64,000 bases of DNA. Origin: an uncultured Alphaproteobacteria bacterium. GTDB lineage: Bacteria; Pseudomonadota; Alphaproteobacteria; HIMB59; GCA-002718135. Of the stretch, positions 50,519 to 64,000 are shown piece after piece; position 1 is the stretch's first letter; each line of letters opens with the position of its first letter. Under the pieces are notes generated by a model that saw only the letters and a program-made list of their open reading frames with translations, did no database searches and was not told the DNA's origin. The position numbers and the translations under genes were made by a program. The stretch is from assembly GCA_902601455.1 (NCBI GenBank), contig CACKNC010000006.1, positions 6,875 to 70,874 on the forward strand, written 5' to 3'.

Positions 50519-51414
50519 AAAATAATTTATTCATAGCAGTAATTCTATCCTTATCAGGATTATTTTTATTAGACTGTATGGGCATCGCCATAAAATATCT
50601 TAGAGATGATTATCCAGCTGCACAATTATCAGTTTTTAGGAATCTGTTTGGAATGATACCATGTTTTATTGTTTTATATTTTTCAAAAGATTGGCATGCT
50701 AGTGGAAAAAAATTAGTAATAAAAAGATGGCGGTTTGGTTTAGCGCGAGGACTAATTATGTCTTTTGCACAACTATGTTTATATACCTCGTATCTTTATT
50801 TACCTTACGCGCTGGTTGCAACAATGGAGTACACAGGCCCAATGATGATAACATTATTAGCAATACCCTTACTTGGTGAAAAATTTGGATGGTATAAATC
50901 ATTAGCTGTATTCACTGGTTTTGTTGGAATAATTTTTATTATGCAACCTTGGTCTGAGAGTTTTAATTTTTATATGTTACTACCTGTAATGGCAGCTTTC
51001 GGATATTCTCTTGCTAGAGTAACAGCATTAAATTTTTCAAATGACACACCAGTACCACTTATTAATCTTTACGCTAATATTGGAACAGTTTTTTGCGCAA
51101 TATTTTTAGTTATCACATTTAATATGTGGGAAAATTTTAAAAGTTTATATGATTTACTTATATTATTTGTAATGGGTTTTGCTGGTGGTTCAGGAGTTTT
51201 ATTATTAATTTATGGTTCTAGAAAAGCAGAACTGAGTAAAATAATGCCCTTTGATTATATAGAGATATTCTTTGCTTTAATATTAGGCTGGGTTTTCTTT
51301 AAAGAATGGCCAGTTGATCAATTATTTCCTGGCGCTTTATTTATAGTCGCTGGAGGGATTATCATATATTTACGACAAACAAATTTTATTAAAACCAGAG
51401 AAAGAAAAGCATAA
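50485..51414 (+). CDS. DMT-superfamily (EamA-like) permease
   Basis: Polytopic, about 300 aa. The true start is probably ATG 50497 or TTG 50509 rather than 50485, which would shorten the overlap with the ATPase gene. Its stop overlaps the mutarotase start (TAATG). Confidence 0.75.
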   Translation: MGRSMWCKLWLKNNLFIAVILSLSGLFLLDCMGIAIKYLRDDYPAAQLSVFRNLFGMIPCFIVLYFSKDWHASGKKLVIKRWRFGLARGLIMSFAQLCLYTSYLYLPYALVATMEYTGPMMITLLAIPLLGEKFGWYKSLAVFTGFVGIIFIMQPWSESFNFYMLLPVMAAFGYSLARVTALNFSNDTPVPLINLYANIGTVFCAIFLVITFNMWENFKSLYDLLILFVMGFAGGSGVLLLIYGSRKAELSKIMPFDYIEIFFALILGWVFFKEWPVDQLFPGALFIVAGGIIIYLRQTNFIKTRERKA

Positions 51415-52463
51415 TGAAAGTTAAGATAGATAAAGTAGATAATCCATTGCAACTAAACATAGAGTCAGTTGAAATTCATAATGACAATAATTTTAGTTTT
51501 AAATTTTATACTTATGGCGGTTACATTCATGAAGTTAATATTCCTATTAATCAGCAAGAAGATAAAACAGAAGATGTTTTGTTAGGCTACGGCAATATCG
51601 ATGGGGTTCTTGAGTCCCATGGTTATTTTAATACTATAGTTGGAAGAGTTGCAAACAGAATAGGAGCTTCAAAGTTTAATATAGATAATAATGAATATCA
51701 ACTATATTCAAATGTTACTCCTAATCATTTACATGGGGGTAAGGTTGGTTTTAATAAAAAAATATGGAAGATAGAAAATATTGAAGAATCAAAAGACTCT
51801 ATCAAATGTTTAATGAAATATCTTTCACAAGATATGGAGGAAAATTATCCAGGCAACCTTGATTGCACTGTTACTTACGAATTAAATAATAATAATGAGC
51901 TCTTAATAGATTTTGGAGCGACCTCTGATAAAGATACAATTGTAAATATGACCAATCATAATTATTGGAACTTTCATGGTCACGGAGATAGTTATCAAAA
52001 TAATGAAGACCATGTCGTATGTATTAATTCCAAATCAATTTGTGAAACAGATGAACATTCTATTCCAACGGGCAAATTCTTAAATGTTGTTGGGTCAAAA
52101 TTTGACTTACAAAAAAAATTTTTAATTAACAAAGAATTTCTAAGCTCTGGTGGAATTGATCACAACTATGTTCTGGATGATCTGTCAATGGAAAATCATG
52201 TAGCTAAAATTTATAGTAAAAAAACTGGTTTAGGTGTGGAGTATTTTACCAATCAACATGGAATTCAGTTTTATACGGGCAATATGATGTTAGATAAATA
52301 TGTTGGTAAGCATAATAAGTCGTATGGTTTTCAATATGGTATGTGCTTAGAGCCTCAACATTTTCCAGATGCTATAAATCACATAAATTTTCCATCTCCA
52401 ATATTAAGAAAAAATAAAAATTATTTATCAAAAATAAAAATTAAATTACGTAACAATTTTTAA
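51414..52463 (+). CDS. Aldose 1-epimerase (mutarotase)
   Basis: 349 aa. GalM-family blocks GRVANRI, HLHGG, NMTNHNYWNF, IDHNYVL and CLEPQHFPDA. Confidence 0.9.
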   Translation: MKVKIDKVDNPLQLNIESVEIHNDNNFSFKFYTYGGYIHEVNIPINQQEDKTEDVLLGYGNIDGVLESHGYFNTIVGRVANRIGASKFNIDNNEYQLYSNVTPNHLHGGKVGFNKKIWKIENIEESKDSIKCLMKYLSQDMEENYPGNLDCTVTYELNNNNELLIDFGATSDKDTIVNMTNHNYWNFHGHGDSYQNNEDHVVCINSKSICETDEHSIPTGKFLNVVGSKFDLQKKFLINKEFLSSGGIDHNYVLDDLSMENHVAKIYSKKTGLGVEYFTNQHGIQFYTGNMMLDKYVGKHNKSYGFQYGMCLEPQHFPDAINHINFPSPILRKNKNYLSKIKIKLRNNF

Positions 52464-52512
52464 AAAAATAAAATCTTGTTTTATTGTTTCTATATATTAT
52501 TAACCTTTACCT

Positions 52513-53010
52513 ATGAAAATTAGCCAAAAAATTATTACTAATTTAAAATCAGGTGGTGCAGACTTTTTTTTAAGCGTTCCATGTAAACTTTTGGCAAATA
52601 TGATTACAATTTTAGAGAATGATAAAGATATTTATTATTCAGCAATTCCTAGAGAAGAAGAAGGAATGGGAATATGTGCTGGTGCTTATTTAGGTAATAA
52701 GCTGCCTTGCATCATGATGCAAAACACCGGTATTGGTAATTCAGTAAATTCTATTGTCTCACTTCTTCAATTATATCAAATGCCTGTTGTTTTTCTTATC
52801 AGTTATAGAGGAACACCAGGAGAGCCTGTAGGTGCACAAGGAGGAATGGCCAGTGTAACTGAAGACCTTCTTAACACATTAAGAATCCCAATGCTTCATT
52901 GCAATACAGAAGAAGATCTTGATAAGATTTCTACTTTTACTAACCACTCTAAAGTAATTGAAAGTCCAGTGGCTGTTTTGTGTAATTTTAATTTAATGAA
53001 AGATGATTAA
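52513..53010 (+). CDS. comD: Sulfopyruvate decarboxylase alpha subunit (ComD family; alternative reading: phosphonopyruvate decarboxylase)
   Basis: 165 aa TPP-enzyme PYR domain only. Blocks SVPCKLLANMI and REEEGMGICAGAYLGNKLPCIMMQNTGIGNSVNSI resemble archaeal ComD as I remember it. Confidence 0.7.
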   Translation: MKISQKIITNLKSGGADFFLSVPCKLLANMITILENDKDIYYSAIPREEEGMGICAGAYLGNKLPCIMMQNTGIGNSVNSIVSLLQLYQMPVVFLISYRGTPGEPVGAQGGMASVTEDLLNTLRIPMLHCNTEEDLDKISTFTNHSKVIESPVAVLCNFNLMKDD

Positions 53011-53012
53011 AG

Positions 53013-53582
53013 ATGAATAGATTTGAATTACTAAATCTTTTGCAAAATACAATCCAAGAGGAGCTTGTTGTTTGTAATATTGGTCTTCCATCTCAAGAAT
53101 TATATAAGATTAATGACCGACCTAATTATTTCTATATGTTAGGAAGTATGGGTTTAGCCTCTTCAATTGGTTTAGGTCTCTCCTTAGCTATAGATAAAAA
53201 CGTTATCAGTATTGATGGTGACGGTTCAGTTTTAATGAACATGAACACACTTGCAACGATTGGTAATAGAGCACCTTCAAATTTTACTCTTTTAATAGTA
53301 GATAATGGGTCTTATGGATCTACAGGAGATCAAAAAACATTTACCAATGAGCGAACATCCTTAAAAGATGTAGCAATAGGAGCGGGCTGCAAAAATGTTA
53401 TTGAATGCTCTGGTGAAGAAACTAGTGAAAATCTAAAGAAAGCTCTTGATGATAATAATAATTCTTATGTTATTATATCAAAAATAAAGCCAGGTAATGT
53501 GCCAATAAAACCAATACCTCTTAATGCTGTTACAATAAGAGATCGATTTAGAAAAGAAATAGGTTTAGTTACTTACCTTTAA
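53013..53582 (+). CDS. comE: Sulfopyruvate decarboxylase beta subunit (ComE family)
   Basis: 189 aa TPP-binding PP domain. Motif: GDGSVLMNMNTLATIG...DNGSYGSTG. Confidence 0.7.
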   Translation: MNRFELLNLLQNTIQEELVVCNIGLPSQELYKINDRPNYFYMLGSMGLASSIGLGLSLAIDKNVISIDGDGSVLMNMNTLATIGNRAPSNFTLLIVDNGSYGSTGDQKTFTNERTSLKDVAIGAGCKNVIECSGEETSENLKKALDDNNNSYVIISKIKPGNVPIKPIPLNAVTIRDRFRKEIGLVTYL

Positions 53583-53599
53583 TTTTTTTATAAACTACT

Positions 53600-54505
53600 A
53601 TGATTTATTCAGTTGGTTCAATTTTTCTTGATCATATTATCAAAATTAATTCTTTTCCTAAAAAGCCAATCAAATTACTTGCTGAGGGAATTGAAAAGAG
53701 GCTTGGTGGATCAGCTGCAGTAGCTAGTTTTACTATAAAAAAACTAGGATTAGACTCATCTTTTATTGGAAGAATAGGTGATGATGAAGTTTCTAAGTAT
53801 CTAAAAGGTGAGTTAAGTGCTTTTAAAATTAAACACAAAGATATTATTACTATTAAGGGTACTAAGTCATCTCAAAGTTATGTTTATGAAGATAGTTATG
53901 GTGAAAGACTTCTTGCAGCTTTTAATGAAAAAAAATTACTAAATAATAAAAAATTACCAAAAATTTCATTTGCAAAAAATACAACTTATATGAGTGATTT
54001 AAGGTGGATTGAAGCAACTCTCTATATTGCTAAAAATTGTAAAAAAAAGAATTTAGTTCAGGTTGTTGATTTAGATAATTATAAATTAAACGTTAAAGTA
54101 AAACAAATAATTGATTTATCTTCACATCCCATCTTTTCAGAGACTGGAGCTTTTGAGTATACTAAAATTAAATCTATTATTAGTTCATTAAAAAAAATGT
54201 ACTCAATGAAGAACAAATTTTATGCGATCACTGCTGGGAAAGAAGGTGTTTATTGGATTGAAAATGGTATTATTTTTAATTGTAAACCTCCAAAAATTAA
54301 AGTTGTTGAAACTAATTGTGCCGGCGATGTTTTTCATGGTGCGTTTGCTGCCTTTATTCATCAAAAATATTCTGTGATGGAGTCAATGCAATTAGCAACT
54401 GCCACTGCTTCATTAAAATGCACTAAAAAAGGAGGTATTTATTCTTTACCCTCTTATTCATCTGTTAAGAAATTTGAAAAAAAAATTCAGGTAAGGAAAA
54501 TATAA
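53600..54505 (+). CDS. PfkB-family sugar (phosphate) kinase
   Basis: 301 aa. N-terminal motif LGGSAAVASFTIKKLG and C-terminal motif ETNCAGDVFHGAF. Confidence 0.85.
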   Translation: MIYSVGSIFLDHIIKINSFPKKPIKLLAEGIEKRLGGSAAVASFTIKKLGLDSSFIGRIGDDEVSKYLKGELSAFKIKHKDIITIKGTKSSQSYVYEDSYGERLLAAFNEKKLLNNKKLPKISFAKNTTYMSDLRWIEATLYIAKNCKKKNLVQVVDLDNYKLNVKVKQIIDLSSHPIFSETGAFEYTKIKSIISSLKKMYSMKNKFYAITAGKEGVYWIENGIIFNCKPPKIKVVETNCAGDVFHGAFAAFIHQKYSVMESMQLATATASLKCTKKGGIYSLPSYSSVKKFEKKIQVRKI

Positions 54506-54509
54506 TTTT

Positions 54510-55433
54510 ATGAAAATACTAATTACAGAATTCATGGAAGATAAAAGTGTAGAAATGCTAAAAAGTAATTTTGATATTACAGTTGATACAAACCTATCTG
54601 TAAATCATAACCAATTAAAAAAAATAATTAGTAATTTTGATATATTAATCGTTAGAAATAAAACGCAGGTTAATAAAGAAATATTAGAAAATGCAACGAG
54701 TTTAAAATTCATTGGACGCTTGGGAGTTGGTTTAGATAATATTGATATTGAATATTGTAAAAATAATAATATTCATGTTCAGCCTGCAACAGGTATGAAT
54801 GCAGAATCGGTTGCTGAATATGTAATTAATACATCACTTTCTTTATTAAAAAACGTGCCTTTAATGCATCAAGAAACCTCCCGAGGAAATTGGCCTAGGA
54901 CATCAATCTCTTCAAGAGAATTAAAAGGTAAGGTTTTTGGTTTAATGGGTTTTGGCTTAATAGCAAAAAAAGTCGGCGCCTTGGCTAAAATGTTTAATGC
55001 TCAAATTATTGCTTATGATCCATTTATTGATCCGAGTATTGCAGATGAATTTAATGTTAAATTAGTTGATATAAATGAAATATTTGAAAAGGCAGATGTT
55101 ATTTCTATACATTTACCTCTTACTTCAACTACCAAAAATTTATTAAATTATGAAGCTTTTAAAAAAATGCAAAAGCAACCAATAATTATTAATTCTTCTA
55201 GAGGATCTATAATTAATGAAGACGATTTACTCAAAGCTTATGATGAAAAGCTAATTTCTGGATTTGGTCTAGATGTTTATGAAACTGAACCTGTACCAAA
55301 AAGTTTTTTAAATAATATAAAAGATAATACTAACTGCATTCTTACCCCTCATGTTGCTGGTGTTACTGAAGAGTCAAATATTAGAGTGAGTGACTTTATA
55401 GCAAATTCAGTAAGAGAATTTTTTAAATTATAA
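54510..55433 (+). CDS. D-isomer-specific 2-hydroxyacid dehydrogenase (PGDH-like)
   Basis: 307 aa. NAD motif GLMGFGLIAKKVG, plus SRGSIINEDDL and the catalytic His in LTPHVAGVT. Confidence 0.85.
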   Translation: MKILITEFMEDKSVEMLKSNFDITVDTNLSVNHNQLKKIISNFDILIVRNKTQVNKEILENATSLKFIGRLGVGLDNIDIEYCKNNNIHVQPATGMNAESVAEYVINTSLSLLKNVPLMHQETSRGNWPRTSISSRELKGKVFGLMGFGLIAKKVGALAKMFNAQIIAYDPFIDPSIADEFNVKLVDINEIFEKADVISIHLPLTSTTKNLLNYEAFKKMQKQPIIINSSRGSIINEDDLLKAYDEKLISGFGLDVYETEPVPKSFLNNIKDNTNCILTPHVAGVTEESNIRVSDFIANSVREFFKL

Positions 55434-56516
55434 TTTAAACTCTTCCATAAATACAACTCGGTTTTCTCTAATAGATTTTTCAGCAGCCTCACCTACTGCA
55501 ACTGATATTAATCCGTCTCTTAGAGATACTTCTGGTTTTGTATTCTGTTGAATAGCTTTAATAAATGCTAAATGTTCAAAATAGGTTGATCCGTGATGAT
55601 GCCCTGCTGCTAAAATTTTATTATCGACCTCTACCTTATTTGATATAATTTTATTATCGTTCCTTAATGCAATTTTAACCTCTGATGAGTTTCTTCCTGA
55701 AGCGCTTGATGGTACAAATGTTTCTATTTTGCCTACGTCTCCCACAGCAACTATTTCTTCTTGATATTCAGAATTTTCTGCAAACATACATAAATCAAGC
55801 ATTCCTCGAACACCATTTTTAAAATCTACAATTACAAATGCATTATCAATGATATCTGGGGTTTTTCCATCATATTTTTCTTCAAGATGGTTAACATCTT
55901 GATTCCCACTTGCATAAACTTTAGCTGGTTCACTTTGAATAACCAGTCTCATAAGATCAAAGAAGTGACAACATTTTTCAACTAATGTTCCACCGGTATT
56001 AACTGAAAATCTATTCCAATCATCTACTTTATGTAAAAAAGGAAATCTATGTTCACGAATAGAGAGCATTTTTATTTTACCAATTATATTATTATGCACC
56101 TCTTTAATTAATTGCTTTACTGGAGGCATGTATCTGTACTCCATTCCAGTCCAGATTATCTTAGAGTAATCCTTTGCAAGTAATTCAAATTTTTTACAAT
56201 CTTCTGTTGTCGTGCATAAAGGTTTTTCTATTAACAAATGTTTATTTGTTTTTAAAATGCGCTCTAATATATTGATGTGTGTAAAATTTGGTGTCGCAAT
56301 AATATATGCATCTGCAATATTTTTACTTATTAATTCATCTAAATCATTGTAAAATTTTGTAGAGTCCTTCACTAATGAATTTGCTTGGTTTCTTGAATTC
56401 TCATTAGTGTCGCAAATTGCTACTACTTCCGCATTCTCAATTATATTAATATTTTGAATATGTTCTTGGCCCATAACGCCAGTTCCAATAACACCATATT
56501 TTATTGTATTAGTCAT
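55428..56516 (-). CDS. Gfo/Idh/MocA-family NAD(P) oxidoreductase
   Basis: 362 aa. Rossmann N-terminus KYGVIGTGVMGQEH and the EKPL motif (LLIEKPLC). Confidence 0.85.
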   Translation of the reverse strand: MTNTIKYGVIGTGVMGQEHIQNINIIENAEVVAICDTNENSRNQANSLVKDSTKFYNDLDELISKNIADAYIIATPNFTHINILERILKTNKHLLIEKPLCTTTEDCKKFELLAKDYSKIIWTGMEYRYMPPVKQLIKEVHNNIIGKIKMLSIREHRFPFLHKVDDWNRFSVNTGGTLVEKCCHFFDLMRLVIQSEPAKVYASGNQDVNHLEEKYDGKTPDIIDNAFVIVDFKNGVRGMLDLCMFAENSEYQEEIVAVGDVGKIETFVPSSASGRNSSEVKIALRNDNKIISNKVEVDNKILAAGHHHGSTYFEHLAFIKAIQQNTKPEVSLRDGLISVAVGEAAEKSIRENRVVFMEEFKL

Positions 56517-57889
56517 ATTGTATATGTCGGTATCTTTAATTGTCTTCCTAAACTTTTTATATCTTCAAGTACATCTCCATAAGTAAAACCTACATGATGC
56601 TCCAAACCACTTAAAAATAAATTTTTTATTTTCTTATGCGTATTGTCACCTAAACTGATTACTCCTGAAGTTCCTGAAAAAGAGTTTTTTCTTTTAAGAA
56701 CCTTTCCATTCATTACGATAAATTTTAGTTTATTTTCTGATTTTGAAACACGAAAAATTGTAATATCACCTGATTTAAATGCAAAGTTATGCAGAAGTGG
56801 CTTTCTTCTATTTGAGTGGACTGTGGCACTAGGGGTATTTTTTTCCGCCATACTTATAGGGGCAAGTCCACAATGCCAAAAAACAGTAGTGTTATCTTTT
56901 TCATCAACATCAACAATATCGACTAATAAAGAAGGTTTATTATTTAATTGATTTAATATGTTGCAGGTTAAACTTCCAAGTATATCAGCTTCACAAGCAG
57001 AGCTTATTTTATTTTCATTCATCATAGCCATTGGTCCGCAAGAAGCACAACCATATTCTGTAAACATCTCAGGCCAACAACGAACAGCAAATGCATCTAT
57101 ATTTTGTGTTTGTTGAATTTTTTCAAGACCATGAAATAGAGATATACTTTTATTCAATTCTTTTTGATTTACTTGATTGGTGTTTTTAAGATTTTTGCTT
57201 ATATCTTTCTTAGTTATAACGATTTCTTTTTTATCAACTTTACTTGAAATATTAAATAAACTCTGCAATTTTATTTTTATTATATTTGCATTAAATTTTG
57301 ATTTTAATTCTTCATTATTAAAATCACAAGTATCAAACCCTTCAGGTCTTTCACCAATAAGACCTAACTTTGGTTTCTTAAACACTATTTTTTTTTTATT
57401 AACTAATTTTAAATTTACTTTTTTTAAATAATTTTGCTTTGTAAAATTATTATTTGTTTTGATAAATTTCAATATTTCACTAGAAAACGACTGCTCATTA
57501 TTAGTGTAAATAATAAAGTTAGAATAAAATTTACTTTTAATTAAAGCATGTAATCCTAAATTTACTCCACAAAGAGAATTTAGTCTTAAGCGCTCACCTG
57601 ATCTTTTTTCTTTAAATGAAATAAAGATTATGGGTTTTTTAAATTTTTTAACAAAAGAAGAAATAAATTTTGCATCCGTAAAAGTTGATTGAATAACTAT
57701 AAATTTTGTACATTTGATTTTTTTAAAGTACTTAATTGCATTTTCACCAATTTTATCATTGGTTATTAAATCATTGAAAAAAACTACTTTTTTATTTAGT
57801 TTTGTAAGTGACTTTTTTGTTTTTACTAATTTTTTCTTTGCAAAATCTATATCAAAAGTTTCCCTTGCTAAACTAAAGCACCCAATCAT
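56513..57889 (-). CDS. L-fucose/L-arabinose isomerase-family aldose-ketose isomerase (specificity unknown)
   Basis: 458 aa. Blocks ASCGPMAMMNE, ACEADILGSLTC, VFWHCGLAP and LEHHVGFTYGD resemble the FucI/AraA C-terminal catalytic region. There are 4-nt and 1-nt overlaps with its neighbours. Confidence 0.55.
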   Translation of the reverse strand: MIGCFSLARETFDIDFAKKKLVKTKKSLTKLNKKVVFFNDLITNDKIGENAIKYFKKIKCTKFIVIQSTFTDAKFISSFVKKFKKPIIFISFKEKRSGERLRLNSLCGVNLGLHALIKSKFYSNFIIYTNNEQSFSSEILKFIKTNNNFTKQNYLKKVNLKLVNKKKIVFKKPKLGLIGERPEGFDTCDFNNEELKSKFNANIIKIKLQSLFNISSKVDKKEIVITKKDISKNLKNTNQVNQKELNKSISLFHGLEKIQQTQNIDAFAVRCWPEMFTEYGCASCGPMAMMNENKISSACEADILGSLTCNILNQLNNKPSLLVDIVDVDEKDNTTVFWHCGLAPISMAEKNTPSATVHSNRRKPLLHNFAFKSGDITIFRVSKSENKLKFIVMNGKVLKRKNSFSGTSGVISLGDNTHKKIKNLFLSGLEHHVGFTYGDVLEDIKSLGRQLKIPTYTI

Positions 57890-58908
57890 TAAAAACCTTT
57901 ATATACATTTTTAAAATTTATAGATTTTTTTTGAATTAATTTATTTGCTAAATACTTATCCAAAGACTGAGCATTTTTTTTTGTAAGTGTGTTTAGTTTT
58001 TTTATATAATTTGCACTTTCATTTCTCAAGCTTTGAGTAATTTTTTTGTAATTTGGATAATCTTTAAAAGCATCTAGCCAAATAGTTCTTCCCGCAAGAT
58101 ATCCAGAGGCACCATTTTTATAGGCTAATTTTAAGCAATTATAAAAAGATTTTTTACTCATTCCAGAAGAAAGCATGACCCATGGAATATCCTTAGTCGC
58201 TAAAGAAAGTTTTTTAAATGCTTCTTGAGTCGCTTTAGTAAATTTACCATTTTCTAATTTACTACTATCTACGGGACTTTCTAATTTAAAAATATCAACC
58301 TTGTATTTTACTTTGGAAAATTCTTTAACACTTTCTATTACGTGATTTTGATTTTTATTTTGTTGTTCTTTGTAATCTTTAGAGTAACCAGTTTCATTTT
58401 TAAATGGATAAACCAATAGTTCTAATAAAAAAGGTATATCATATTTTTCACATTGCCTGCCTATCATTTCAATATATTTTTTTTGATGCTTAATTGATTT
58501 TTGATCTGCATCAGGTCGATACCAAGCCAGTACTTTTACTGCATCACCACCTATTTTTTTTATTTTTTCAACTGTCCAATTGTTTATATTTTTTGAATAT
58601 CTTCCTTTGCCTTTTTCTGCAAAAGTATGATCCTCCAACGTAACTATTAATCCATTACTCTTGCTAGTATGGATCAGGTTTGGAATTGAATAAACAGGGT
58701 CCATTAATATTGCACTAGAATGCTTAGAGAGGTTTTCTGATATGTGTTTTTTAAACTTAACAACATCATCAAAATTGTAATTCTTTTTTTTCTGTTTAAT
58801 GATATTGAAAATCGGTGGTCTCTGATCAATAGCCAGCATCTCTAAATGATTGTAATTATTACATATTTTTTTAATATGTACGTATTTACCAGTTGTATAA
58901 GTTTTCAT
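57889..58908 (-). CDS. Class I aldolase of the LacD / YihT (tagatose-bisphosphate / sulfofructose-phosphate aldolase) family
   Basis: 339 aa. Blocks LEMLAIDQR, SAILMDPVY, GGDAVKVLAWYRPD, IFKLESP (Schiff-base Lys region), IPWVMLSSGM and GASGYLAGRTIW are co-linear with the conserved blocks of E. coli YihT/LacD as I remember them. Confidence 0.75.
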   Translation of the reverse strand: MKTYTTGKYVHIKKICNNYNHLEMLAIDQRPPIFNIIKQKKKNYNFDDVVKFKKHISENLSKHSSAILMDPVYSIPNLIHTSKSNGLIVTLEDHTFAEKGKGRYSKNINNWTVEKIKKIGGDAVKVLAWYRPDADQKSIKHQKKYIEMIGRQCEKYDIPFLLELLVYPFKNETGYSKDYKEQQNKNQNHVIESVKEFSKVKYKVDIFKLESPVDSSKLENGKFTKATQEAFKKLSLATKDIPWVMLSSGMSKKSFYNCLKLAYKNGASGYLAGRTIWLDAFKDYPNYKKITQSLRNESANYIKKLNTLTKKNAQSLDKYLANKLIQKKSINFKNVYKGF

Positions 58909-58960
58909 TAAAGATTCAGTGTTTGATTTTACACAATTATTTTTTTTAATAATAGAATAG

Positions 58961-58993
58961 ATTGATAAAACAAGATTTTATTTTTTTATCAAT
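58961..58993. promoter_or_regulatory. Inverted repeat ATTGATAAAA-N13-TTTTATCAAT in the divergent promoter region
   Basis: Read directly. The arms are 10-bp exact reverse complements at 58961-58970 and 58984-58993. Confidence 0.45.
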
Positions 58994-59147
58994 TGTTTAT
59001 TTATTAAAATTATTACTTAAATACATAATTTCAATTGTTTAATTCATATTAGCAATTAAATTTCAATAATTTCTAGATAAATCCTCCTTTTTTTTGACTT
59101 GTATAAATAAACATTTTGGTTAATGTTAAAAAAAAATTGGAGGAAAT

Positions 59148-60422
59148 ATGATTAAATATTTTTTTAAAGCAGTTTCAGTAACTGCTATTACAATCTCCCT
59201 GACATTGGTTTCTGCAGTTTCTTTTGCTGCCACAGATGTAAGAATTATGTGGTATGGTGATGGTGACAAAGAAAATGTTCCAATTCAAGGACAAATAGAT
59301 GCATTTAATGCAGCTAACTCAGATATTAACGTTATTCTTGATATCGTACCTTACGATGCAATTATGAATACTTTACCTATTCAATTAGCAGCTGGTGAGG
59401 GACCTGATATCGCAAGAGTTACAGATCTAGGTGGTCTAAATAAATATTATGCTGATATCACACCGCATGTAGCTAATCCTCAATATTATGAAGATAGTTT
59501 TGGTCCTTTTTTAAAGTGGTACCGTAAGTCAGGAGACACAAGCTCAATTCATGGTTTTCATTCTACAATGACTGTTACAGGTCCTTATGTAAATAAAACT
59601 TTATTTGAACAAGCTGGCGTTGATCTGCTTGGTCCGGGTGCAACTTGGGCAGAATGGGCAGATGCAGCAAATGCAGTTGCAAGTAAACTAGATATTCCAA
59701 TTCCGATGGCTTGGGATAGATCAGGTCACCGTGTATCTGGTCCAGCAGTATCTATGGGCGCTCAATACTTTGATGCAAACGGTGATCCAAAATTAGTTGA
59801 TGATGGTCTAAAAGCTATGACTCAAATGCTTTATGACTGGCACCAAGATGGAACTATGTCTAAAGATCTTTGGGGTTCCGTATCAGGAACAAAATATCAT
59901 GCTCCTAATGATTGGTGGAATGCAGCTGAAGTTGTGTTTATGATGAGTGGATCTTGGCAAATTGGAAGATTTGCTAATGAAGTTGGAGATGACTTTGACT
60001 GGTGGGCAGTACCTGCTCCTTGTGGGCCTGCTGCTTGTACTGGAATGCCTGGTGGAAATGCATTGCTAGCTTTTACAGCAAATGATGCTGTAGGAAGAGT
60101 AATGGACTATCTATCAAGTAAAGAGCAATTAGGTGCATTTATTGGAGAAGTTCTTGCAATACCAGGACATCTAGATTTACCTGTTGATTATCAAACAGAT
60201 GATGCAAATGCAAAACATGCACTAGAAACTTTTGCTGGTGCTGTACCTACAATTGATCAAGTTGCTTTTGATCTTCAGGCGCATGTAGATAACCGTATTA
60301 TGTTCAATGCAATCATTTCAAGATTAGGTCAAGCGATAGTTGGAGAGATGTCTCTGGAAGAAGCTTGGGTTAAAATGGATGAGGATGTTGAAAAACAACT
60401 TAAAGAAAAATACGGCGGTTAA
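59148..60422 (+). CDS. ABC transporter substrate-binding protein, family 1 (CUT1 sugar type)
   Basis: 424 aa. Signal peptide MIKYFFKAVSVTAITISLTLVSAVSFA and RBS GGAGG. It is followed by MalF/MalG-type permeases. Confidence 0.85.
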   Translation: MIKYFFKAVSVTAITISLTLVSAVSFAATDVRIMWYGDGDKENVPIQGQIDAFNAANSDINVILDIVPYDAIMNTLPIQLAAGEGPDIARVTDLGGLNKYYADITPHVANPQYYEDSFGPFLKWYRKSGDTSSIHGFHSTMTVTGPYVNKTLFEQAGVDLLGPGATWAEWADAANAVASKLDIPIPMAWDRSGHRVSGPAVSMGAQYFDANGDPKLVDDGLKAMTQMLYDWHQDGTMSKDLWGSVSGTKYHAPNDWWNAAEVVFMMSGSWQIGRFANEVGDDFDWWAVPAPCGPAACTGMPGGNALLAFTANDAVGRVMDYLSSKEQLGAFIGEVLAIPGHLDLPVDYQTDDANAKHALETFAGAVPTIDQVAFDLQAHVDNRIMFNAIISRLGQAIVGEMSLEEAWVKMDEDVEKQLKEKYGG

Positions 60423-60444
60423 TCCTCTTTTTAAATAAATAATG

Positions 60445-60472
60445 AAGCTGCTCAATTTGAGCAGCTTTTTTT
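60445..60472 (+). terminator. Intercistronic stem-loop plus T-run after the binding-protein gene
   Basis: AAGCTGCTC (60445-60453) pairs with GAGCAGCTT (60459-60467), followed by TTTTT. Confidence 0.7.
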
Positions 60473-60484
60473 CTAATAAATCAG

Positions 60485-61516
60485 ATGAAAAATATAAGAA
60501 TTAATATTAAAAATTTCTTCATAAGAGTTTTCAATATCCCATTTGCATTTTTAATGCATGCTATTGATATTATAATGTGGCCAATACAAAAAATAGTTGG
60601 TGTAAGAAATATGCCTTATATTTTTTTATTACCTAATTTATTTTTTTTTGGTTTATTTGTCATCGTACCACTAGGAGTGAATGTGGCTTTTTCTGTTACT
60701 GGTGGTGATGAATTACTATTTGCGAATAGAGAATTTTCTGGGGCCAAACACTACAATTATTTGTTTGATTGTGAAAATTATTTAAATGCAAATACCTGTA
60801 CAGAAGATTTTTTTTGGAGAGGAGTTCATAACACAATATTTTTTGTAATCTTTCAAGTTGGTTTAATGATTTTCTTTTCACTATTAACGGCTGTAATTTT
60901 AAATAAAAAAATTATAGGAAGAGGTTTCTTTAGGTCAGTATTTTTTTTCCCAGTTTTATTATCTCCAGTAGTAGTTGGTTTAATATGGCAATGGATATTA
61001 CTTAAAAACGGAATACTTAATGCTTTTATTGAAGCAAATGGTGGAGACAAATTTTCATTTTTAACTGATCCTGGATGGGCAATGACTTCAAGTATCTTTG
61101 TGTCAATATGGGCGCATATGGGTTTTTATACATTAATTGTATTAGCAGGACTTCAGGCAATACCTCCAAATCTATATGAGGCTGCTGAAATGGATGGAAC
61201 TAGTAGAGAGAGAACTTTCTTTAGAATAACCTTACCTCTTTTAATGCCCAACCTACTTGTTGTGTTTATACTTGCATCTATCAAAGGAGTGCAAACATTT
61301 GATGAAATATATGTTTTAACAGGAGGAGGACCTGGAACTTCAACATCGCTAATAGTTCAATACATTTTTACTACAGGTTTTGCTTCATCAGGATCTGTTC
61401 AAAACTTTGGTCTTGCTGCTGCAGCATCTATGGTTTTAGGTGTTGTGCTATTACTTTTAACTTTAATTCAACTTTACTTATCAAGAAGTAGAGAAAACAA
61501 ACACCAAGAGATTTAA
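60485..61516 (+). CDS. ABC transporter permease (MalF/UgpA-like)
   Basis: 343 aa with EAA loop YEAAEMDGTSRERTFFRITLPLLMP. Confidence 0.85.
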   Translation: MKNIRINIKNFFIRVFNIPFAFLMHAIDIIMWPIQKIVGVRNMPYIFLLPNLFFFGLFVIVPLGVNVAFSVTGGDELLFANREFSGAKHYNYLFDCENYLNANTCTEDFFWRGVHNTIFFVIFQVGLMIFFSLLTAVILNKKIIGRGFFRSVFFFPVLLSPVVVGLIWQWILLKNGILNAFIEANGGDKFSFLTDPGWAMTSSIFVSIWAHMGFYTLIVLAGLQAIPPNLYEAAEMDGTSRERTFFRITLPLLMPNLLVVFILASIKGVQTFDEIYVLTGGGPGTSTSLIVQYIFTTGFASSGSVQNFGLAAAASMVLGVVLLLLTLIQLYLSRSRENKHQEI

Positions 61517-62581
61517 ATGGGCAATACTGCAAGTTTAATTAAAAATATTGTTACCCAAAAAAAATATAAAGAAAAATATCATTGGACAGATTATTTTTCT
61601 TATTTTTATCTCTTCTTAGGTGTGTTTCTAATGTTTGGTCCAATAATTTGGTTGGGATTATCTTCCGTTAAAACTCTTGCAGGTATTCAAGAGTACCCAC
61701 CAACTATCCTTCCGCTTTCACAAATACAAGTTGAAGTAGATGGATATGAAAAACCACTATCGCTATATAATGTAACATTAGAGGATGGGAGTACAAAAGA
61801 GTTAGCTGAAATTAAAAGAGTTGGAATTACTTCTAAGATGGTAGATCCAAAAGATACTGAAAAAAAATATAAAATACCAATTGATAAAAGAGAAAAAATA
61901 AGAGAGTTTAGTGTGCAGTGGGACAATTATTTAGACCCACTAAGAAAGTATAATTTTTTACTATATTTCAAGAATTCAATTTTCGTTACTGTTATTGCTA
62001 CAATAATAACACTTATAATAAATTCTATGGCAGCTTATGCTCTTTCCATTTATGAGTTTAGAGGAAAGAATATAGCTCTTGTTTTTGTAATTGGTACTTT
62101 GTTAATTCCTCTTACAATTATTTTAGTACCTGTCTTTTATGTTATTGCAAATTTTGGAATGATTAATTCTTTATGGGGGGTTATTTTGCCTGGGGCAGCA
62201 ACACCCACTGGTGTATTTTTATTAAGGCAATATATGTTAACTTTGCCAAGAGAACTAATTGAAGCTGCAAGGATGGATCATGCCAGTGAGTGGGCAATTT
62301 ATTGGCGTATTGTGTTACCATTATCAATTCCTGCGATAGCTGTTTTAGCAATATTCTCAATTATGTGGAGATGGAACGATTTCTTATGGCCGCTTATTGT
62401 TCTCTCAAAAAGTGAAGTTTATACTTTGCAAATTGCCTTAAATGCTTTTCATGGAGAATTAACAAGTCAATGGAATTATGTGTTGGCAATGACTATGGTT
62501 ACTCTGCTACCTATTGCTTTAATTTTTACATACCTTCAAAAATTTATAACAACTGGCATAGCTAGTACAGGTATGAAATAA
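61517..62581 (+). CDS. ABC transporter permease (MalG/UgpE-like) with a long periplasmic loop
   Basis: 354 aa with EAA loop IEAARMDHASEWAIYWRIVLPLSIP. A soluble loop of about 100 aa follows TM1. Confidence 0.85.
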   Translation: MGNTASLIKNIVTQKKYKEKYHWTDYFSYFYLFLGVFLMFGPIIWLGLSSVKTLAGIQEYPPTILPLSQIQVEVDGYEKPLSLYNVTLEDGSTKELAEIKRVGITSKMVDPKDTEKKYKIPIDKREKIREFSVQWDNYLDPLRKYNFLLYFKNSIFVTVIATIITLIINSMAAYALSIYEFRGKNIALVFVIGTLLIPLTIILVPVFYVIANFGMINSLWGVILPGAATPTGVFLLRQYMLTLPRELIEAARMDHASEWAIYWRIVLPLSIPAIAVLAIFSIMWRWNDFLWPLIVLSKSEVYTLQIALNAFHGELTSQWNYVLAMTMVTLLPIALIFTYLQKFITTGIASTGMK

Positions 62582-63594
62582 TGAATTCTAAACCTACAAT
62601 TATATTTGACCCATATCCACGAAATGAAGAAATGGTGTTTACAACAGATGTTGAAAAAGAATTAAATAAAATATCAAAATTAGTATCACATTTTGGAAGT
62701 AGAGCTCCCGATAATTTAGTTGAAGAAAACTTATCAGATACTGAAATTATCGTCGGACAAACAAGTATGCCTAAAGAACGATTGGATAAGGCAAAGAAAT
62801 TAAAAGCAATAATAAACGTAAAATGTAATTGGGAACCAAATATCGATTACATAGAAGCTCATAAAAAAGGAATTTATGTTTTATCTGCAGCGCCAGCTAT
62901 GGCCCCAGCAGTTGCGGAAGCATGCGTTGGATATGCAATAGCTTTATCTAGAGGAACTATACAAAATTATAATAAGTTTCTTAAATCAGAAGAAAAGTAT
63001 GGAATTAAAGGAAATGGAAAAGCATATTCTTTATTTAATTCTAATGTAGGTTTTATTGGTTTTGGAAATTTAGCAAAAAATCTTTTACCTCTGCTAAAGC
63101 CTTTCAATTGTAATATTTCTGTTTATGATCCATGGCTATCTTACGAATATTTAGAGTCTCAAGGTGTAGATAGTGTGTCTTTAGAAAAACTATTATCAAA
63201 TAATAAATTCATTTTTATACTTGCTGGAGTAACAAGTGAAAATGAAGGCTTTATAAATAAAGAAAAATTAGAATTAATAGAGAAAGATAGCTCAGTTATT
63301 TTAGTGAGTAGAGCAGAGGTACTTGATTTTGATGAGTTTATTAATCTTGCTGAAAAAAATAAATTTAGAGCAGCAGTTGATGTTTTTCCAGAGGAACCAG
63401 TCCCTTCAGATGCATTTTTTAGAAAAGAGTCTAATATTTTATTTACGTCTCATGTTGCTGGCGCTATGCATTTTTCTTATAAAAATATTAGAGAAATGAT
63501 GATGGATGATATAAGACAAATTCTTAAGGGTATGCCACCTACGCGATTACAAAGAGCAGAACCACATCAGGCGATGTTGAGGAGAGATAGATGA
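62581..63594 (+). CDS. D-isomer-specific 2-hydroxyacid dehydrogenase-family protein
   Basis: 337 aa. NAD motif VGFIGFGNLAKNL, plus SRAEVLDFDEF and the catalytic His in FTSHVAGA. It is inserted between the permease and ATPase genes with 1-nt and 4-nt overlaps. Confidence 0.8.
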   Translation: MNSKPTIIFDPYPRNEEMVFTTDVEKELNKISKLVSHFGSRAPDNLVEENLSDTEIIVGQTSMPKERLDKAKKLKAIINVKCNWEPNIDYIEAHKKGIYVLSAAPAMAPAVAEACVGYAIALSRGTIQNYNKFLKSEEKYGIKGNGKAYSLFNSNVGFIGFGNLAKNLLPLLKPFNCNISVYDPWLSYEYLESQGVDSVSLEKLLSNNKFIFILAGVTSENEGFINKEKLELIEKDSSVILVSRAEVLDFDEFINLAEKNKFRAAVDVFPEEPVPSDAFFRKESNILFTSHVAGAMHFSYKNIREMMMDDIRQILKGMPPTRLQRAEPHQAMLRRDR

Positions 63595-64000
63595 CTGAAA
63601 TAGTATTAAAAAATATATTTAAAAGTTATGATCAAACTGAAGTAATTCATGGTGTTGATTTAAAGGTTGAAAGTGGAAAATTCCTTGTATTAGTTGGCCC
63701 GTCTGGATGTGGAAAATCAACATTGTTAAGAATTATTGCTGGGTTGGAAAGAATTACATCAGGAGAAATATTAATTGAAGGAAATGAAGTAAGTAATATC
63801 CCAGCTTCTGAAAGAGGTCTTGCAATGGTATTTCAATCATACGCATTATATCCCCATATGTCGGTTTATAAAAATATGGCATTTTCTCTTGAGAACTTAA
63901 AAATTGACAAAAAAACAATTGAAGAAAAAGTAAATAGCGCAGCAAAACTTCTTCAAATTGAAGATTATCTTCAACGAAAACCAAAAGCTTTATCGGGTGG
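63591..64000 (+). CDS. ABC transporter ATP-binding protein, MalK/UgpC-like (partial, runs off the window)
   Basis: Not in the ORF track. Manual translation from ATG 63591 gives MTEIVLKNIFKSYDQTEVIHGVDLKVESGKFLVLVGPSGCGKSTLLRIIAGLE...MVFQSYALYPHMSVYKNMAF...LSGG, with Walker A, the Q-loop and the start of the signature. Confidence 0.9.
   Translation, partial: MTEIVLKNIFKSYDQTEVIHGVDLKVESGKFLVLVGPSGCGKSTLLRIIAGLERITSGEILIEGNEVSNIPASERGLAMVFQSYALYPHMSVYKNMAFSLENLKIDKKTIEEKVNSAAKLLQIEDYLQRKPKALSG

Follow-up and report, generated by a model that had tools for sequence, protein, structure and literature searches.

Probable sulfoquinovose gene cluster with embedded sulfopyruvate decarboxylase genes in a marine HIMB59-type alphaproteobacterium: a putative one-cell route toward sulfite

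Near the end of the window (the whole 64,000-nucleotide stretch of DNA that was analysed) a co-directional array on the plus strand comprises genes for an aldose 1-epimerase (51414-52463), the two ComDE subunits ComD (52513-53010) and ComE (53013-53582), a PfkB kinase (53600-54505) and a 2-hydroxyacid dehydrogenase, here called HADH1 (54510-55433), with intergenic gaps of 49, 2, 17 and 4 bp. This array converges with a minus strand operon with overlapping junctions, which encodes a DeoC/LacD aldolase (57889-58908), a FucI-like isomerase (56513-57889) and a Gfo/Idh/MocA family protein (55428-56516). The upper-coordinate end of the latter gene is overlapped by the isomerase gene. An AT-rich spacer of 239 bp (58909-59147), in which no Rfam family was found and promoter-like sites were no commoner than in shuffled sequences, separates the aldolase operon from a divergent CUT1 ABC importer operon on the plus strand. 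This contains a binding protein (59148-60422; PF01547), two permeases (60485-61516 and 61517-62581; PF00528), a second D-2-hydroxyacid dehydrogenase family gene (62581-63594; PF02826, 104 bits) and the first 136 residues of a UgpC/MalK type ATPase (63591-64000), the window ending inside this gene. Every open reading frame of this arrangement was found where the original prediction had placed it, including the dehydrogenase gene between the permease and ATPase genes, and family assignments were checked with Pfam and NCBIfam.

The original prediction had also proposed to look for co-occurrence of these genes in related genomes. The block is indeed kept in syntenic order at 52-98% amino acid identity in about 15 independent HIMB59-type marine loci, and partly in one gammaproteobacterium and one Marinicaulis metagenome-assembled genome. 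Because of this conservation the reading frames of the cluster can be regarded as real genes rather than chance open reading frames.

The product of 55428-56516 is, as judged from homology and diagnostic residues, SqgA, an NAD+-dependent sulfoquinovosidase of family GH188. Its matches in the PDB are 8qc2 (FlSqgA with NAD and sulfoquinovose, SQ; 1.2e-110), 8qc3 (ArSqgA; 1.7e-110) and 8zn9 (RdSqgA; 1.7e-103), all three being biochemically characterised sulfoquinovosidases, and the next Gfo-family structure follows only at 1e-29. The catalytic lysine, tyrosine, glutamate and two histidines as well as the sulfonate triad R-x3-L-x-K are intact in the protein and its orthologs and missing from neighbouring paralogs of the same superfamily. 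Glutamate 189, which binds the C4 hydroxyl of SQ, is kept, and the protein is about 55% identical to the enzymes crystallised with SQ. The structure matches in the range of 1e-110 together with these residues speak against a Gfo/Idh/MocA dehydrogenase. The statement that the window lacks a sulfoquinovosidase had arisen from reading this gene as an oxidoreductase and has to be withdrawn; since the gene encodes SqgA, its product is also not available for the oxidation toward sulfopyruvate for which it had been considered.

For the remaining sugar genes the agreement with known sulfoglycolytic enzymes differs in closeness. The epimerase is of the GalM type (PF01263, 1e-69) with human aldose 1-epimerase 1snz as its best PDB match; unlike E. 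coli YihR, which scores 617 bits, it does not match the YihR model NF011719, and it is proposed from its family to act as the SQ mutarotase. The sole NCBIfam match of the isomerase is NF048012, the SQ isomerase SftI, over the full length (1.1e-87, 295 bits). This lies far below the equivalog cutoff of 700, and orthologs in SQ contexts score alike. The protein thus appears to belong to the known SqvD/SftI-type, FucI-like family interconverting SQ and sulfofructose, and its family is not the departure from described pathways for which it had been taken. The kinase was rightly described as YihV-like: its best solved relative is the sulfofructose kinase 7ag6 (1.6e-39, 139 bits versus 54 bits for ribokinase), and E. 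coli YihV aligns with 30% identity (E = 1e-48). The diagnostic residues are partly retained, K27, R138, D244, D13, S95 and D162 being conserved and N109 lying opposite an alanine, so that a sulfofructose 1-kinase is proposed. The aldolase matches PRK12858 (323 bits, cutoff 184) and keeps the Schiff-base lysine K193 together with R253 and S226. It had been called a class I aldolase of the LacD/YihT family, of which the class and the relationship to LacD hold, whereas closeness to YihT does not: the protein is nearer to PDB 8TNF (9e-76, 258 bits) and to LacD (2e-38, 135 bits), and to tagatose-bisphosphate aldolases in general, than to YihT (4e-14, 56 bits). A role as class I DeoC/LacD-family sulfofructose-1-phosphate aldolase is proposed. 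The best NCBIfam labels, ribokinase for the kinase and tagatose-bisphosphate aldolase for the aldolase, carry no information, as E. coli YihV and YihT yield the same generic best matches, PRK12858 in the case of YihT. Five related loci (L006, L015, L017, L018 and L019) keep the kinase without the aldolase at its position.

ComD, the alpha subunit with the N-terminal TPP domain, reaches 154.5 bits against TIGR03845 (cutoff 147.95, margin only 6.5), and ComE, the beta subunit with the TPP-binding C-terminal domain, 222.1 bits against TIGR03846 (cutoff 221.5, margin only 0.6). With the phosphonopyruvate decarboxylase model they score only 98 and 126 bits versus a cutoff of 312, and neither PEP mutase nor other phosphonate genes were found in the 64-kb window, which supports the predicted preference for sulfopyruvate over phosphonopyruvate. 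Among solved structures the one nearest to ComE (95 bits) bears the label of a putative phosphonopyruvate decarboxylase subunit. The 90%-identity cluster to which ComE belongs comprises 1601 sequences, and one source calls a member sulfopyruvate decarboxylase subunit beta. ComDE is present inside every HIMB59-type locus and is the most conserved portion of the block, with ComD identities of 85-98%. HADH1 is a short PGDH-like D-2-hydroxyacid dehydrogenase (PF00389 and PF02826) of the same Pfam family as the validated (S)-sulfolactate dehydrogenase SlcC. It adjoins the kinase in every locus compared and is proposed to be an SlcC-like (S)-sulfolactate dehydrogenase yielding sulfopyruvate.

Two comparison loci illustrate how the module varies. 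In Pseudothioglobus the order is aldolase, isomerase, SqgA, PfkB kinase and HADH1, with a DeoR-family regulator and GlpK adjacent, the latter fitting SQ-glycerol as the substrate. The SQ island of Marinicaulis contains the orthologous isomerase, aldolase (43% identical) and PfkB kinase together with a GH31 glycosidase, a GabD-type aldehyde dehydrogenase, a 40% identical HADH1 homolog beside ComC-like L-sulfolactate dehydrogenase and SuyB-like genes, SorA and a YeiH exporter. The GH31 gene occupies the slot after the isomerase where the HIMB59 and Pseudothioglobus loci carry SqgA, an instance of the complementary distribution of GH31 and GH188 which has been described (PMC10755693). Both clusters are without ComDE, and the link to ComDE is therefore lineage-specific.

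Further sulfonate genes lie elsewhere in the window. Xsc was correctly recognised on the plus strand at 6413-8188 (TIGR03457, 942 bits, cutoff 676; NF005713, 1022 bits) and would, as the desulfonating step, accept the product of ComDE. A Pta/Ptb-family phosphotransacylase is likewise present as predicted, on the minus strand at 36434-37345 (NF006045, 297 bits, cutoff 282), in the family converting acetyl phosphate to acetyl-CoA. The HisD-family gene on the minus strand at 21474-22760 had been considered as an oxidiser in the sugar route. It is assigned by homology as HpsN, the (R)-DHPS 3-dehydrogenase, its best match being the sulfopropanediol 3-dehydrogenase 8v35 (3.6e-155, 520 bits versus 248 for histidinol dehydrogenases). 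In stereochemistry its product is the reverse of the (S)-intermediates of sulfoglycolysis (PMC12421959), so it does not fit that position; it would rather provide a parallel entry into sulfolactate outside the sugar cluster. As the original prediction had stated, no sulfolactaldehyde dehydrogenase or reductase of the GabD/SlaB or YihU type was found in the 64-kb window, nor did such homologs turn up in 17 loci out to 10 kb from the cluster.

Taken together, the genes probably encode the catabolism of SQ glycosides by a hybrid sulfo-EMP pathway which is fused, in one operon pair, to the conversion of its C3-sulfonate product to sulfoacetaldehyde. SQ-glycerol or SQ would be imported by an ABC system, the choice of importer being uncertain, SqgA would free SQ, the GalM-type epimerase would equilibrate its anomers, and the SqvD/SftI-type isomerase would form sulfofructose. 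After phosphorylation to sulfofructose-1-phosphate by the YihV-like kinase, the aldolase would release DHAP to central metabolism and (S)-sulfolactaldehyde, which a dehydrogenase encoded outside the window would oxidise to (S)-sulfolactate. HADH1 would then yield sulfopyruvate, ComDE sulfoacetaldehyde, and Xsc acetyl phosphate and sulfite, with the Pta-like enzyme forming acetyl-CoA. What the sequences show is the family of each gene, the diagnostic residues of SqgA and partly those of kinase and aldolase, and the shared synteny; the substrate specificities throughout, the in-line use of ComDE, the importer, the exporter and the oxidation of sulfolactaldehyde are inferred. Homology, the diagnostic residues and the comparison of loci give good support to the core of the original prediction, a sulfosugar cluster with embedded ComDE as a one-cell route toward sulfite, though not to several of its supporting details. 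The complete mineralisation which it envisaged stands as a genomic potential with one gap, because no enzyme could be assigned to the conversion of sulfolactaldehyde to sulfolactate. SQ is a very abundant algal sulfosugar, and its conversion to sulfite has so far been thought to be divided among different ocean bacteria. Here, the splitting of SQ and the passage of its sulfonated half toward sulfite would be encoded in one gene cluster of a small-genome marine alphaproteobacterium, which would vary the known pathways in a way not described before, in a HIMB59-like lineage not known as an SQ degrader.

It is also conceivable, albeit unlikely, that ordinary sulfoglycolysis ends here with excretion of sulfolactate or DHPS, ComDE being merely co-located in a sulfonate island and salvaging, with the SlcC-like enzyme, external DHPS (via HpsN), sulfolactate or cysteate. 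The window is a general sulfonate island: besides HpsN it contains Xsc, accompanied by a TRAP system and a GMC oxidoreductase, as well as a Tpa-like aminotransferase, accompanied in turn by alanine dehydrogenase and the Pta-like gene. Moreover, published accounts place ComDE solely in the second-tier degradation of DHPS and sulfolactate, Pseudothioglobus carries the sugar genes without it, and in the 17 loci no sulfolactaldehyde dehydrogenase joins the two halves. However, in every HIMB59-type locus ComDE sits between mutarotase and kinase on one strand with gaps of 2-49 bp, which suggests that it is transcribed together with the sugar genes, and HADH1 belongs to the S-specific SlcC family, in keeping with the (S)-sulfolactate of sulfoglycolysis but not with the (R)-sulfolactate that HpsN makes. 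Sugar-linked and salvage uses of ComDE are not mutually exclusive.

Since the aldolase is nearer to tagatose-1,6-bisphosphate aldolases, with 135 bits to LacD structures versus 56 to YihT, another 6-sulfo sugar such as sulfofucose, degraded via sulfotagatose, or promiscuity for C4 epimers has to be weighed; a sulfotagatose kinase/aldolase route has been held plausible for PF00294 and PF01791 proteins of Paracoccus wurundjeri. This is very unlikely in view of the retained E189 and the overall similarity of SqgA to SQ-liganded enzymes, the use of SQ by the nearest characterised isomerase family, the PRK12858 match shared with YihT, and the rarity of sulfofucose compared with abundant SQ-glycerol in seawater (PMC12780224).

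Slightly less probable again is a bypass without sulfolactate, suggested because no aldehyde dehydrogenase goes with the cluster anywhere, in which the PGDH-like enzyme oxidises C2 of sulfolactaldehyde and the ComDE-like enzyme cleaves the hydrated 2-oxo-aldehyde to sulfoacetaldehyde and formate, or in which a non-ALDH enzyme replaces SlaB/GabD. TPP enzymes of the ComDE superfamily, for example IolD, are capable of hydrolytic carbon-carbon cleavage beside a carbonyl. The sulfolactaldehyde dehydrogenase of P. wurundjeri has likewise been reported without identity (PMC12421959). Such a bypass is, however, without precedent, D-2-hydroxyacid dehydrogenases normally require the carboxylate of the substrate, ComDE scores above the equivalog thresholds for sulfopyruvate decarboxylase, GabD and an HADH1 homolog occur together in Marinicaulis, and it would be simpler to assume a housekeeping aldehyde dehydrogenase encoded in another part of the genome. 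That the cluster serves a non-sulfonated sugar (6-deoxyhexose, tagatose or fructose-type) beside an unrelated phosphonopyruvate or other decarboxylase, as public annotations (L-fucose isomerase-like, predicted dehydrogenase, myo-inositol dehydrogenase), the generic kinase and aldolase labels and the name of the structure nearest to ComE would have it, is hardly credible given the intact sulfonate triad of SqgA, the same labels on YihV and YihT, the lack of phosphonate genes in the window and the sulfolactate and sulfite genes in Marinicaulis.

For the proposed SQ pathway, the adjacent CUT1 system is a possible yet uncertain importer of SQ or SQ-glycerol. Its binding protein shares 37% identity with the "type C" counterpart accompanying the SQ module in Pseudothioglobus and locus L015, and no solved SQ-binding protein was among its PDB matches. 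The importer position is a variable hotspot among the loci, and in relatives the operon extends with genes suggesting another glycoside pathway, so that the system may serve a different glycoside module. The second D-2-hydroxyacid dehydrogenase is confined to loci that have the type A importer (L006, L007, L018 and L019). The translated ATPase fragment contains the Walker A motif GPSGCGKST, and its full-length ortholog in L007 matches UgpC with 475 bits. Directly upstream of the mutarotase lies an EamA/DMT-family membrane transporter (50485-51414, plus strand; PF00892, 77 bits), a candidate exporter of sulfite or a sulfonate. Most HIMB59-type loci keep it in synteny with the SQ block, with identities of 72-94%. 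Its reading frame is listed from a TTG, and the true start may lie further downstream. A second EamA transporter gene (35532-36434; PF00892, 121 bits) overlaps the Pta-like gene.

The core of the original prediction is right and several of its details are wrong. The open reading frames of the sugar cluster were found exactly where it had placed them, and their families were confirmed by Pfam and NCBIfam. On the + strand an aldose 1-epimerase (51414-52463), ComD (52513-53010) and ComE (53013-53582) of sulfopyruvate decarboxylase (ComDE), a PfkB kinase (53600-54505) and a D-2-hydroxyacid dehydrogenase, HADH1 (54510-55433), follow each other with intergenic gaps of 49, 2, 17 and 4 bp. Convergent to this array is a - strand operon with overlapping junctions, which comprises a Gfo/Idh/MocA protein (55428-56516), a FucI-like isomerase (56513-57889) and a DeoC/LacD aldolase (57889-58908). 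A 239-bp AT-rich spacer separates it from a + strand CUT1 ABC operon with a binding protein, two permeases and the N-terminal 136 residues of the ATPase; the second 2-hydroxyacid dehydrogenase, HADH2 (62581-63594), does lie between the permease and ATPase genes as had been claimed. No Rfam match to a regulatory RNA was found in the spacer, and counts of promoter-like and terminator-like signals were the same as in shuffles. The two remote genes on which the prediction relied are also present, namely the sulfoacetaldehyde acetyltransferase Xsc (from 6413), unambiguous by profile match, and a Pta/Ptb-family gene (36434-37345, - strand).

Co-occurrence in related genomes is extensive. The block is kept in about 15 HIMB59-type loci at 52-98% identity, which shows its members to be real genes kept by selection. 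The window has a G+C content of about 31%, and among named relatives GORG single-cell genomes and 'Alphaproteobacteria bacterium MarineAlpha5_Bin5' come closest; a published tree groups MarineAlpha5 with HIMB59. Many single-cell genomes and metagenome contigs from a streamlined HIMB59-like lineage carry the cluster.

Of all the sequence evidence, that from the Gfo/Idh/MocA protein argues most strongly for a 6-sulfonated glucoside as substrate of the cluster. Over its full length it matches PDB entries 8qc2 (1.2e-110), 8qc3 (1.7e-110) and 8zn9 (1.7e-103), and the next Gfo-family structure follows at 1e-29. Entries 8QC2/8QC8, 8QC3/5/6 and 8ZN9 are FlSqgA, ArSqgA and RdSqgA, the founding members of GH188 and biochemically characterised NAD+-dependent sulfoquinovosidases (PMC10755693, PMC12780224). 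The catalytic residues of this family are K107, Y136, E189, H193 and H321, and a triad of R166, L170 (backbone) and K172 contacts the sulfonate (ArSqgA numbering). All catalytic motifs are present in the window protein: EKP with the lysine, MEYRY with the tyrosine, EKCCH with the glutamate and a histidine, and GHHHGSTY with the second histidine. The triad reads HRFPFLHK in the window and HRFPFL[H/I/K]K in the related loci L011 (Pseudothioglobus), L015 and L018, and both the catalytic residues and the triad are conserved in the Pseudothioglobus ortholog and in those from two HIMB59 subclades. Two neighbouring paralogs of the same family are without the triad, E189 and H321. The product of 55428-56516 is therefore designated SqgA, a predicted GH188 NAD+-dependent sulfoquinovosidase for which hydrolysis is the expected reaction. 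With this, the lack of a sulfoquinovosidase drops out of the differences from known pathways that had been listed, and the protein can no longer be relied on for an oxidation leading to sulfopyruvate, one of the roles it had been given. A function as sulfolactaldehyde or sulfolactate oxidiser, prompted by a complementary pattern of GabD-type and Gfo/Idh/MocA genes among the loci, was dropped for the same reason. A GH31 gene in L015 was also considered as a YihQ; it shares 23% identity with YihQ, MalA and alpha-xylosidase models score above the YihQ-type model, and a YihQ is not needed there as SqgA is present.

The isomerase has a single NCBIfam match, to the sulfoquinovose (SQ) isomerase SftI of the sulfo-TAL pathway (NF048012), over its full length with 295 bits (1e-87). 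As the cutoff of this model is 700 bits, the match shows homology short of equivalog-level membership; the orthologs from Pseudothioglobus and Marinicaulis reach the same score. No PDB match was obtained by sequence. The isomerase gene and sqgA overlap in the window as well as in L011, L015 and L018. The isomerase does belong to a family different from that of YihS, as predicted, but this is no departure from described pathways, given the SftI match and the SqvD-type isomerases known from sulfo-EMP2.

For the kinase the nearest solved relative is the sulfofructose kinase YihV (7ag6, 139 bits as compared to 54 for ribokinase), with 30% identity, an E-value of 1e-48 and an invariant GXGD catalytic aspartate, D244. 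Of the KRN triad which contacts the sulfonate in YihV (K27, R138 and N109; PMC8006165) the positions K27 and R138 are kept in the window, and N109 aligns with an alanine that has an asparagine two residues downstream; in Pseudothioglobus the R138 position is an asparagine. The label 'ribokinase' given to the window kinase is uninformative, since the best NCBIfam match of E. coli YihV in a control search was 'ribokinase' as well. Among characterised relatives the kinase is closest to YihV by these comparisons, and a sulfofructose kinase would be the corresponding assignment.

The aldolase had been ascribed to the LacD/YihT family of class I aldolases. Class I membership stands, with Schiff-base Lys193 and phosphate/sulfonate Arg253 invariant (alignment A2), but both residues are probably shared with LacD too and thus do not discriminate between YihT and LacD. 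Against the PDB the enzyme scores 258 bits with 8tnf, 135 with LacD and 56 with YihT. It passes the PRK12858 model, which is also the best model of E. coli YihT, and represents a separate clade; orthology to YihT over the tagatose-bisphosphate aldolases was not found. PDB 8TNF is an uncharacterised 'DUF2090' protein; no paper citing it was found, and the sulfofucose paper (PMC12421959) was ruled out as its source. Five related loci which keep the kinase (L006, L015, L017, L018 and L019) are without the aldolase at its usual position, the junction of isomerase and binding protein at about 9800-10000 in each. Either another aldolase, for example a housekeeping class II FBA, would cleave sulfofructose-1-phosphate in these cells, or the aldolase is encoded at another site. 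The mutarotase, a GalM-type enzyme, matches GalM models only, below their cutoffs; it has no match to the YihR model NF011719, with which E. coli YihR scores 617 bits.

In the C3 half of the proposed route, HADH1 is a short PGDH-like enzyme with domains PF00389 and PF02826, the same family as the validated (S)-sulfolactate dehydrogenase SlcC (PMC12421959 Table S2). Sulfoglycolysis gives (S)-series intermediates (PMC12421959), so the stereochemistry would fit an SlcC-like function of HADH1. ComD and ComE pass the sulfopyruvate decarboxylase models by narrow margins, with 154.5 bits for ComD (TIGR03845, cutoff 147.95) and 222.1 bits for ComE (TIGR03846, cutoff 221.5). The alternative of a phosphonate enzyme was rejected: on the phosphonopyruvate decarboxylase model TIGR03297 the two reach 98 and 126 bits (cutoff 312.5), and no PEP mutase was found in the 64-kb window. 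The genomic company of ComDE consists of sulfonate genes, namely Xsc, the (R)-DHPS 3-dehydrogenase HpsN and the Pta-like gene. Its embedding among the sugar genes, which the prediction had stressed, holds in every HIMB59-type locus, where ComDE is the best-conserved part of the block. Conversion of sulfopyruvate to sulfoacetaldehyde and on to acetyl phosphate and sulfite is thus, as judged from gene content, encoded in the window by ComDE, Xsc and the Pta-like protein. That ComDE acts in line on SQ-derived sulfopyruvate is somewhat favoured. In the literature ComDE appears only in second-tier degradation of DHPS and sulfolactate; no paper was found placing it inside a sulfoglycolysis cluster, and none linking SQ to SAR11 or HIMB59.

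The step from sulfolactaldehyde to sulfolactate has no candidate of a known type in the cluster. Searches with tblastn using YihU and a GabD-type query were empty in the window and within 10 kb in 17 loci, and the ALDH family had no match in the 64-kb window, in line with the original prediction. The simplest answer would be a housekeeping aldehyde dehydrogenase elsewhere in the genome; in Paracoccus wurundjeri the sulfolactaldehyde dehydrogenase was likewise not identified (PMC12421959). The HisD-family enzyme at 21474, proposed earlier for oxidation to sulfopyruvate, turned out to be HpsN (520 bits as compared to 248 for HisD). HpsN is predicted to convert (R)-DHPS to (R)-sulfolactate, a parallel input and not the sulfolactaldehyde oxidation step.

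Taken as a whole, a hybrid sulfo-EMP pathway with a GH188 sulfoquinovosidase would open the breakdown of SQ glycosides, and the SlcC-like dehydrogenase with ComDE, encoded in the same pair of operons, would extend it from the C3 sulfonate to Xsc. Action of the cluster on SQ glycosides is highly probable, while for complete mineralisation of SQ by the cell the chances appear evenly balanced.

Two bridging loci outside the lineage were informative. In a Marinicaulis MAG (L014) orthologous kinase, aldolase (43% identity) and isomerase (37%) genes stand in a row, followed by a GH31 glycosidase, and the surroundings hold a GabD-type aldehyde dehydrogenase, a HADH1 homolog (40%) adjoining a ComC-like L-sulfolactate dehydrogenase and a SuyB-like dehydratase, the sulfite dehydrogenase SorA and a YeiH-type exporter. 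This is a recognisable island which would lead from SQ via sulfolactate to sulfite, and the setting of the HADH1 homolog in it lends indirect support to an SlcC-like function of HADH1. The gene after the isomerase is GH31 in Marinicaulis and SqgA in the HIMB59 and Pseudothioglobus loci; a complementary distribution of GH31 and GH188 has been reported for SQ clusters (PMC10755693). In Pseudothioglobus the order is aldolase, isomerase, SqgA, PfkB kinase and HADH1; a regulator of the DeoR type is present and a glycerol kinase lies alongside, which fits SQ-glycerol as substrate.

Assignment of the SQ importer is uncertain, as three different ABC systems (types A, B and C) occupy the position adjoining the SQ genes in different genomes. 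The window carries type A. Its binding protein had no match to solved SQ-binding proteins in a PDB search and is 37% identical to the type C protein. Locus L007, whose binding protein is 98% identical to that of the window, was used as proxy for the operon past base 64000. The type A operon in relatives runs on with two more Gfo/Idh/MocA genes, a 403-residue protein and an AP_endonuc_2 TIM-barrel gene, which suggests another glycoside module. A conserved protein of 400-403 residues without Pfam or NCBIfam match stands downstream of the importers adjoining the SQ cluster, in two different importer contexts (L015:1436-2638, L017:1434-2636, L018:1064-2275 and L019:809-2020). Type C is the importer which most clearly travels with the SQ genes. 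It is 74-80% identical between Pseudothioglobus sp. nBUS_23 (L011:3016-7868) and a HIMB59-type locus (L015:5022-9833), as compared to 47-66% for the SQ enzymes, and this suggests that the importer alone was either transferred recently between a gamma- and an alphaproteobacterium or is under strong constraint. In the closest relatives (L001, L002, L004, L005 and L012) a type B importer replaces that of the window. A sulfatase-like gene adjoins it (L001:768-2042), and the window holds a PehA-like sulfatase (42520-44061); these genes hint at the use of sulfated besides sulfonated substrates.

An Opp/Dpp-type ABC system (44222-50518), with an SBP_bac_5 binding protein of the unusual length of 683 residues, lies on the same strand, nearly gap-free, upstream of an EamA gene and the mutarotase, and was considered as a member of the operon. 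Between HIMB59 subclades it is 90-97% conserved as compared to 52-65% for the SQ enzymes, which suggests a conserved backbone neighbour and no functional partner. By the same comparison the SQ block appears to be an island, evolving faster or replaced, within a backbone that is conserved.

The component families are all known; the combination, the exit via ComDE and Xsc and the host lineage are new. With yihQRSTUV of E. coli the cluster shares the sequence from SQ glycoside via SQ, sulfofructose and sulfofructose-1-phosphate to DHAP and sulfolactaldehyde, a kinase related to YihV, and a class I aldolase with the same Schiff-base lysine and arginine. It differs in having GH188 in place of GH31 YihQ, an SqvD/SftI-type isomerase in place of YihS, a GalM-type mutarotase in place of YihR and an aldolase of a different clade of the family; YihU is missing, and the proposed route is without the DHPS excretion of E. 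coli. The SqvD-type isomerase is shared with sulfo-EMP2 and hybrid sulfo-EMP clusters (Liu et al. 2021; reviewed in PMC9594981), and single clusters that mix isozymes of sulfo-EMP and sulfo-EMP2 have been described before. However, sulfo-EMP2 uses the PfkA-type kinase SqiK and the class II aldolase SqiA and ends in sulfolactate or DHPS, whereas in the window the kinase is of the PfkB type, the aldolase belongs to class I and ComDE is present. Arthrobacter sp. AK01 likewise has GH188 SqgA in place of GH31, an ABC importer and an oxidative fate of sulfolactaldehyde (PMC8873060, PMC10755693), but it uses YihS, YihT and a GabD-type sulfolactaldehyde dehydrogenase and excretes sulfolactate, with no continuation by SlcC, ComDE and Xsc.

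Also similar are the GH188 'Tyr-variant' clusters of the Actinobacteria IMCC26103 and Clavibacter (PMC11465081) and the Marinicaulis locus, which share GH188 or GH31, a 'fucose isomerase', a sulfofructose kinase, a 'D-3-phosphoglycerate dehydrogenase', an ABC transporter and a variably present aldolase, and which couple sulfoglycolysis to C3-sulfonate mineralisation in one cluster. They desulfonate by the sulfolactate sulfo-lyase SuyAB and have a GabD-type enzyme, in contrast to the window with ComDE and Xsc and no GabD. A 2024 micropublication describes similar Actinobacterial clusters, with GH188, 'fucose isomerase', sulfofructose kinase, an optional aldolase, 'PGDH', sulfolactaldehyde dehydrogenase and SuyAB, as possible new pathways. 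In Roseovarius nubinhibens and other Roseobacteraceae, in the outline given by Denger et al. 2009, sulfolactate passes via sulfopyruvate and, by ComDE, sulfoacetaldehyde to acetyl phosphate and sulfite by Xsc; this is a second-tier route for imported C3 sulfonates with SlcD or ComC, whereas in the window the ComDE genes are part of a sulfosugar operon and have an enzyme of the SlcC family as partner. Paracoccus wurundjeri also combines sulfosugar cleavage, SlcC and complete desulfonation in one organism, but by an ED-type sulfofucose route in tandem with SuyAB (PMC12421959).

If the route from GH188 through hybrid sulfo-EMP, SlcC and ComDE to Xsc is true, five of the six carbons are recovered and sulfite is released. 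Marine SQ compounds are estimated at about 1.5 Pg carbon per year (PMC12780224). Recent work has Alteromonadaceae and Roseobacteraceae as the main marine SQ consumers and SAR11-like oligotrophs as users of small sulfonates excreted by others. The present cluster suggests that streamlined HIMB59-like cells take up a sulfosugar glycoside and desulfonate it internally without such a two-tier hand-over; ComDE and Xsc in place of SuyAB would be a new way to join sulfoglycolysis with desulfonation. We propose tentatively, at slightly less than even confidence, that HIMB59/AEGEAN-169-type bacterioplankton and, with a shorter form, Pseudothioglobus are unrecognised primary degraders of SQ-glycerol in the open ocean, the HIMB59 type performing complete mineralisation in one cell by this undescribed route, including a sulfolactaldehyde oxidiser of a new type. 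The HIMB59-type cluster in any event adds one more case of a missing sulfolactaldehyde dehydrogenase. Public annotation calls its proteins 'L-fucose isomerase-like protein', 'predicted dehydrogenase' and 'myo-inositol 2-dehydrogenase', and neither GH188 SqgA nor YihV is represented by an NCBIfam model, so automated surveys are likely to overlook the cluster as SQ catabolism. The same applies to surveys which use YihQ, SqgA identity cut-offs or canonical markers.

Further sulfonate genes are spread over the window. A GMC (BetA-like) oxidoreductase (8191-9792, - strand) is convergent with Xsc, and beyond it lies a TRAP transporter with DctP (10034-11131), DctQ (11190-11798) and DctM (11798-13132). 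This segment (8191-13132) resembles the arrangement of isethionate dehydrogenase IseJ with IseKLM and would be a second feeder of sulfoacetaldehyde for Xsc. A Tpa-like omega-aminotransferase (37473-38819) and an alanine dehydrogenase (38819-39934) are divergent from the Pta-like gene, beside which an EamA transporter (35532-36434) is found; aminotransferase, alanine dehydrogenase and Pta-like protein form a taurine-type module, which makes the window a sulfonate island in which several substrates converge on Xsc. A protein of 365 residues with two SnoaL-like domains (22757-23854) overlaps HpsN. Further double-SnoaL proteins (24945-25928 and 34456-35529) and a bicupin (23959-24930) occur near HpsN, all without NCBIfam match. 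Also beside HpsN are sulfate-activation (PAPS) genes, a CysQ-like phosphatase (17907-18698), CysD (18704-19603) and a fused CysN/CysC (19600-21477), in a lineage whose relatives are said to need reduced sulfur.
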